64,000 bases of DNA from Escherichia coli (GTDB taxonomy: Bacteria; Pseudomonadota; Gammaproteobacteria; Enterobacterales; Enterobacteriaceae). Positions within the stretch are counted from its first letter, which is position 1, and the number at the start of each line of letters is the position of its first letter. Below are positions 540 through 723 of the stretch, one piece after another. Under the pieces are notes generated by a model, which was not told the DNA's origin, searched no databases, and saw nothing but the letters and a program-made list of their open reading frames with translations. The translations under genes were made by a program, and so were the position numbers. The stretch lies in the NCBI RefSeq assembly GCF_016026235.1, contig NZ_CP065613.1; one strand, written 5' to 3'.

Positions 540-723
540 GCGGATGCGGCGTGAAAACCTTATCCGCCCTACATGTGCAATCCCGTAGGCCGGATAAGAC
601 GCGGCAAGCGTCGCATCCGGCAATTGCACCGCGCCACTGGCGGATGCGGCGTGAACGCCTTATCCGCCCTACATGTGCAATCCCGTAGGCCGGATAAGAC
701 GCGGCAAGCGTCGCATCCGGCAT
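540..723. repeat. REP/BIME block: two near-identical 100-bp tandem units, each holding a pair of inverted REP palindromes
   Basis: Unit 540-639 is repeated at 640-723 with 2-3 mismatches; GCGGATGCGGCGTGAA...CTTATCCGCC and GTAGGCCGGATAAGACGCGGCAAGCGTCGCATCCGGCA motifs. Confidence 0.85.

Follow-up and report, generated by a model that had tools for sequence, protein, structure and literature searches.

The question raised by this locus is what occupies the gap between eutG and eutH in Escherichia coli, whether its doubled form sets one genome apart from others, and whether it matters to the mRNA in which it lies. Its sequence identifies the occupant as a BIME-2 element in a two-unit allelic form, located in the transcribed eutG-eutH spacer of the 17-gene eut operon. 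The literature on BIME-2 elements and on their differing copy number from strain to strain goes back to the 1990s; the element is already known in kind and in state, and it is not a product of faulty assembly. The account given here, which comprises the BIME-2 identity, the copy-number polymorphism, the inferred modest effects on mRNA and the dispensability of the element, is held as a whole with high confidence.

The window, that is, the whole stretch of 64,000 nucleotides of E. coli DNA that was analysed, begins inside eutH, and the list of open reading frames and the RefSeq annotation of matching DNA place the eut operon on its minus strand. The genes at this end of the window are the following:

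4151-2748, minus strand: eutE (open reading frame list; RefSeq annotation of matching DNA agrees)
2737-1901, minus strand: eutJ (open reading frame list; RefSeq annotation of matching DNA agrees)
724..1911, minus strand: eutG (ethanol dehydrogenase), the upstream gene (open reading frame 724-1938, minus strand; RefSeq annotation of matching DNA)
1..507, minus strand: 5' part of eutH (ethanolamine permease), the downstream gene (ATG at 507; RefSeq annotation)

Translation of eutG from 1911 gives 396 codons, ending in ...LYAAAQ*, with the TAA stop at 726-724 on the minus strand. The eutH ATG lies at 507 on the same strand, and the spacer between the two genes is thus 508-723, or 216 bp. The EutH translation is 100% identical to EutH at Escherichia loci.

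In the direction of transcription, the spacer consists of these parts:

723, minus strand: single A between the eutG stop and the first REP (1 nt)
685..722, minus strand: Z2-type REP, eutG-proximal, TGCCGGATGCGACGCTTGCCGCGTCTTATCCGGCCTAC (38 nt; hairpin of -22.8 kcal/mol; REP head and tail motifs)
673..684, minus strand: short linker within the REP pair, GGGATTGCACAT (12 nt)
640..672, minus strand: inverted Y-type REP, intact copy, GTAGGGCGGATAAGGCGTTCACGCCGCATCCGC (33 nt; -16.2 kcal/mol; first hairpin of the naRNA4 alignment)
623..639, minus strand: inter-unit linker, CAGTGGCGCGGTGCAAT (17 nt; confined to alleles with at least two units)
585..622, minus strand: Z2-type REP, eutH-proximal, identical to the eutG-proximal copy (38 nt; second hairpin of the naRNA4 alignment)
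573..584, minus strand: short linker, second copy (12 nt)
540..572, minus strand: inverted Y-type REP, variant copy, GGCGTTCACGCC -> GGTTTTCACGCC (33 nt; weakened stem top; -12.1 kcal/mol)
508..539, minus strand: unique leader carrying the eutH ribosome-binding site, TAATAAATAACAACTAACAGGGAGTAAAGGCG (32 nt; no U-run after the last hairpin)

The 38-nt and 33-nt REPs are assigned to the Z2 and Y types by alignment to the stems of the naRNA4 model and by the consensus sequences of the two types. Tandem Repeats Finder reports one array at 540-722 with a period of 100, 1.8 copies, 97% matches and no indels (score 352), and a repeat search finds 86-nt direct repeats at 540-625 and 640-725 that are 97% identical and spaced by 100. 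In the mRNA sense the order is Z2 REP, 12 nt, inverted Y REP, then 17 nt, then again Z2 REP, 12 nt, inverted Y REP. The period of 100 is the sum 38+12+33+17, and the array is one full unit followed by 83 bp, i.e. two REP pairs with a single 17-nt linker between them. The original prediction of two nearly identical 100-bp units in a 216-bp spacer was therefore right about period, identity and spacer, but the second unit is incomplete (83 bp). Its claim that each unit holds two REPs in opposite orientation is borne out by the sequence, the hairpin folds and the naRNA4 alignment.

In a blastn search with the unit, the two copies share 83 bp at 97.6%, which corresponds to 2 mismatches, and they differ a third time at the edge of the array. 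Both mismatches fall within the loop and stem top of the Y REP (GAAAACC vs GAACGCC), and the variant Y hairpin, folded singly, reaches -12.1 kcal/mol against -16.2 kcal/mol for the intact one. The short linker GGGATTGCACAT holds ATTGCAC, which is complementary to GTGCAAT of the 17-nt linker, and in the fold their pairing lengthens the Y hairpin. Folded whole, the spacer is far more stable than shuffled sequence (z = -5.3). The first hairpin begins 1-2 nt 3' of the eutG stop (TAA at 726-724, hairpin-forming REP from 722).

Scans of the spacer (508-723) found no promoter and no intrinsic terminator. A GC-rich hairpin followed by a U-run does not occur in 508-723, the sole hits being a weak palindrome at 472-490, inside eutH. 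The last hairpin of the array is followed by UAAUAAAUAACAACUAAC, and a U-run is absent after every hairpin. The ACAGGGAGTAAxGGC core of the eutH leader is kept across Enterobacteriaceae in the spacer comparison. Open reading frames that run across the palindromes (53-110 aa, e.g. 523-723, minus strand, 66 aa) arise from the repeat as by-products and were discounted. Beneath the match at this site, one RefSeq genome has a 'hypothetical protein', and the RefSeq K-12 record gives no REP feature at the eutG-eutH site.

BIME-2 elements have been defined as z2 and y REPs in multiple tandem copies, in which REP and inverted REP are split by a short linker S; the definition includes flanking motifs s, l or r, and the tandem copy number at a given BIME-2 locus differs between E. 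coli strains (Ton-Hoang et al., PMC3333891). The eut array has Y and Z2 REPs in alternating orientation, as seen in sequence, in the folds and in the alignment to the naRNA4 covariance model. Each REP is bounded by CCTAC and GTAGG, in agreement with the GTAG/CTAC expected at the REP foot. The linkers, 12 nt inside each pair and 17 nt between pairs, agree with the definition in their lengths and positions, and the tandem copies vary in number between E. coli strains (1, 2, 3, 4 or 5 units). What the original prediction called 'BIME-like' can thus be sharpened to BIME-2, with alternating z2 and y REPs, a short linker and tandem copies variable between strains (PMC3333891). The extragenic, transcribed position is a further likeness, and in the traits named here there is no difference of substance.

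The array also matches the Rfam family naRNA4 (RF02564) with 77.5 bits against a gathering score of 59.5. The match covers 669-588 on the minus strand and model positions 1-77, with both stems aligned and the 17-nt linker aligned to the model linker with a 4-nt insertion. The founding unit of this family is the Y-linker-Z2 of REP325, the yjdM-yjdN BIME-2 (PMC4550694). The eut array contains the same Y-linker-Z2 unit, and both elements sit between co-directional genes of an operon; REP325, however, has 6 repeats (12 hairpins), whereas the window allele has 4 hairpins, and the flanking genes differ. As the model finds a second match in the window, at 28336-28412, it recognises a repeat class and not a specific gene.

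The copy number of the element among strains was determined in a database of 5,426 complete E. coli genomes. The two flanks alone served as queries, so that the span of the matches gives the insert size. The sample consisted of 120 genomes, taken as two sets of 60 rows at even steps down the match ranking, and nine spacers were decomposed base by base to define the alleles:

1 unit: 41 of 120 genomes; spacer of 116 bp
2 units: 45 of 120 genomes (~37%, a class inflated by the many K-12 laboratory derivatives in the collection); spacer of 216 bp (K-12 MG1655, KL53, the window)
3 units: 9 of 120 genomes; spacer of 316 bp (S87, C43(DE3))
4 units: 2 of 120 genomes
5 units: 9 of 120 genomes; spacer of 515 bp (GN04592)
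O157-type decayed remnant: 6 of 120 genomes; spacer of 99 bp (O157:H7), with a 16-nt deletion in the Z2 5' arm and a degraded Y hairpin
Replacement allele, an unrelated dispersed repeat instead of the BIME: 6 of 120 genomes (~5%); spacer of 169 bp (Ec42), the whole block being swapped for a different repeat
Unscorable: 2 of 120 genomes

The comparison of REP unit number across strains, which the original prediction had called for, thus gives 1-5 units in E. coli at this junction. Several copy numbers are present in every flank-identity class of the 120-genome census, and the twelve flank haplotypes nearest to the window carry 1, 2 or 3 units, or the remnant. Some sequence variants are common to all units of an array and differ between lineages (CCAGCC in K-12 and C43, CTACAGG in GN04592), which suggests repeated amplification or homogenisation within lineages. 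Ungapped identity between units is 0.86 within arrays and 0.91 between arrays, values that are distorted by 1-bp indels in some units and carry no weight here.

Two of the alleles deserve a brief description. In the O157:H7/O55:H7 remnant the Z2 5' arm is deleted and the Y hairpin is weakened to -9.8 kcal/mol; its Y variant, GGCTTCACGCAGC, recurs in the last unit of Escherichia sp. E1V33. In the 169-bp allele (Ec42, LF82) a 137-nt GC-rich dispersed repeat, CCCCTCGCCCCTTTGGGGAGAGGGTTAGGGTGAGGGG..., exactly replaces the BIME block. This repeat occurs at a median of 15 places per genome and may correspond to the 'boxC' repeat, which it resembles.

The direction of change can be discussed for the closest relative of the window, FDAARGOS_943. 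It is 100% identical to window positions 1-622 and 99.94% identical to 640-7023 (4 mismatches in 6,384 bp), and it carries a single unit bearing the variant Y REP of the window. The 17-nt linker is absent from the one-unit alleles that were read, including that of FDAARGOS_943, so a change from one unit to two by simple slippage is impossible. One unequal exchange between the two 83-bp repeats of the window, on the other hand, gives exactly the FDAARGOS_943 sequence. These two observations suggest that the window state is the ancestral one and FDAARGOS_943 a contraction: two units are probably the ancestral state for the clade of the window, and the single unit of FDAARGOS_943 is, as far as the alignments tell, most simply explained as a deletion from a window-like allele. 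The 'tandem duplication' of the original prediction stands as a description of structure but not as a recent event, two units being a common state of a polymorphism that runs from 1 to 5 (6) units. In general, the copy number would change when the 83-100-bp direct repeats mispair by slippage or recombine unequally, with the REP-associated transposase TnpA(REP) as a possible alternative. Contraction would be easy by this route, and expansion from one to two units would not.

Beyond E. coli, one genome per species was scanned with EutH, which gave 80 loci, and the eutG-eutH spacers were extracted from a subset of them:

Citrobacter sp. FP75 and C. braakii: 27 bp, palindrome absent
Pluralibacter and Yokenella: 32 bp, palindrome absent
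C. sedlakii: 60 bp, one inverted REP
Salmonella enterica subsp. diarizonae: 67 bp, one Z2-like REP, 2 nt past the stop codon
Several Citrobacter and Pseudocitrobacter: 119-123 bp, REP pairs in another arrangement
Klebsiella species: 170-216 bp, Klebsiella-type REPs
Other Escherichia clades: 116, 315, 474 and 578 bp, with 1, 3, ~5 and ~6 BIME-2 units, respectively

Across these taxa, only the leader of about 28 nt with the ribosome-binding site is conserved in the spacer. REPs fill the junction in at least five genera (Escherichia, Salmonella, Citrobacter, Pseudocitrobacter and Klebsiella), though not universally. That genera carry REPs of their own type at one and the same junction points to one of two things: REPs insert here preferentially, or a structured element at this position is under selection. 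The E. coli one-unit BIME-2 spacer is also present in HRGM_Genome_0066, a metagenome-assembled genome that bears the label 'Citrobacter sp.' and whose EutH and EutG are 100% and 99.5% identical to those of the window; from these matches the contig, or what its label should be, looks like Escherichia.

By combining the structure of the array with published work on similar elements, it is possible to describe what the element may do in the eut mRNA. The best studied relative is REP325, which stabilises the mRNA of its upstream gene and attenuates the downstream gene; its deletion raises expression of the downstream gene about 8-10-fold and lowers that of the upstream gene, and its RNA forms a ladder of hairpin-ended species (Harris et al. 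2026 preprint, 10.64898/2026.03.23.713779). In the same study, Rho dependence was partial, was seen only with the full 12-hairpin REP325 and was undetectable in fragments of 2-4 hairpins, and REPs were not linked genome-wide to longer mRNA half-lives (10.64898/2026.03.23.713779). Published data further show that, genome-wide, tandem gene pairs containing a REP have a raised upstream/downstream expression ratio. According to PMC12306157, which summarises Liang et al. 2015, a REP less than 16 nt past the stop codon lowers translation of the upstream gene. The first hairpin after eutG lies within this distance, and it shares the geometry of the REPs of Liang, Rudd and Deutscher 2015 (within 15 nt of the stop) as they are described in PMC12306157. 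In the REP lists that were consulted, eutG was not found.

Four stable hairpins would form a barrier to 3'-to-5' exonucleases, to the benefit of the eutS-eutG part of the mRNA, which lies upstream. Read-through into eutHABCLKR would be attenuated weakly at most at the four-hairpin copy number, as can be expected from the lack of detectable Rho dependence in the 2-4-hairpin fragments of REP325. With the first hairpin beginning 2 nt beyond the eutG stop codon, terminating ribosomes are proposed to stall at that codon, which would lower the yield of EutG. By analogy with these published cases, an exonuclease barrier, weak attenuation and stop-codon stalling are the most likely activities of the element at eutG-eutH. 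The roles named in the original prediction, mRNA stabiliser and partial terminator, are those described for REP325; the closeness of the first hairpin to the eutG stop codon was missed there. Overall, ethanolamine use is probably little affected. The existence of natural alleles with a decayed hairpin or without any REP argues that the element is probably dispensable for eut. The available expression data come from strains with other alleles. In LF82, RNA-seq gives 168 RPKM for eutG and 514 RPKM for eutH, values that are uninformative on the BIME since this strain has the non-REP 169-bp allele (PMC6379400); EDL933 carries the decayed allele, and its expression data are fold changes only.

A bolder reading of the same observations is that the junction acts as a selected 'dial', in which the copy number sets transcription into eutH, the lyase genes and the terminal activator gene eutR. 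It draws on the genus-specific REPs found at the same junction and on the range of E. coli alleles, from 0 to 10-12 hairpins, and is considered improbable. If it were true, the EutR feedback loop and ethanolamine sensing would be tuned differently between pathotypes.

The modest mRNA effects proposed above have to be weighed against the view that the array is a selfish or neutral repeat, tolerated in the intercistronic gap and of no meaningful effect on eut expression. This is a real possibility, somewhat short of an even chance. The O157/O55-type allele has lost its Z2 hairpin and retains a weakened Y hairpin, an unrelated dispersed repeat stands in for the BIME in about 5% of the sampled genomes, including the AIEC strain LF82, some enterobacteria manage with a bare spacer of 27-32 bp, and the copy number is free to vary inside haplotype classes. 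However, an mRNA with stable hairpins, one of them touching a stop codon, is unlikely to be left wholly unaffected, published data contain measurable local effects of elements of this kind, and REPs recur at the junction in at least five genera. The natural alleles with decayed or absent hairpins bear equally on a role at the level of DNA, in which the array would serve as a binding and cleavage site of DNA gyrase and ease supercoiling in a long, strongly induced operon. The array fits the BIME-2 definition, and Espeli and Boccard (1997) reportedly observed gyrase cleavage of BIME-2 repeats in vivo, but the same alleles imply that such a site, too, would be dispensable here, and this role is regarded as unlikely.

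Less probable still, and by a wide step, is that the transcribed array gives rise to a nucleoid-associated RNA of the naRNA4 kind, which would bind HU and help to condense the chromosome. The Rfam match above the gathering score and the original claim for REP325 (PMC4550694) speak for such an RNA; the model, however, matches any Y-linker-Z2 pair, such as the one at 28336-28412, and REP325/naRNA4 were later found to give no measurable compaction of the nucleoid, with REP-REP contacts unseen (10.64898/2026.03.23.713779). The 2026 preprint and the 2015 study of REP325 (PMC4550694) have an author, Adhya, in common. That the second unit is an expansion made during assembly can be set aside as having a negligible chance. 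Tandem repeats misassemble in principle, and nothing specific was found in favour of this having happened here, but the 100-bp period is shorter than an ordinary sequencing read, and the units can be told apart at two positions. The two-unit allele is also widespread, being present in K-12 MG1655 and in ~37% of the sampled complete genomes (a share raised by K-12 derivatives), and this excludes the artefact. The preferred reading is thus a genuine BIME-2 allele with modest local effects on the eut mRNA.

As a discovery the array carries little weight, the K-12 reference genome having the same two-unit array at eutG-eutH. A search of the available literature returned no paper joining eutG, eutH and 'extragenic palindromic', and the supplementary text of RepRanger contains neither eutG nor eutH. 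In practice the array is a hypervariable marker with a 100-bp period, which can differ between near-identical strains and calls for caution in assembly comparison and typing. Pipelines based on Rfam will call it 'naRNA4', and gene prediction may yield false open reading frames within it. The natural series of alleles at one operon junction, from 0 to 5-6 units, is also a ready test set for the effects of REP dosage on attenuation and mRNA stability.

Other REPs are found in the window. A second pair, composed of an inverted Y, a linker and a Z2, lies at 28333-28412 on the plus strand and scores 92.7 bits with the naRNA4 model, above the score of the eut copy. It sits between a gene ending in TAA at ~28316-28318 and a convergent open reading frame at 28427-29149 on the minus strand. 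Single REP-like sequences were located by blastn of the unit and by REP head and tail motifs at ~15577-15594, 17033-17051, 33042-33067 and 53322-53362. The density of REPs in the window is ordinary for E. coli.
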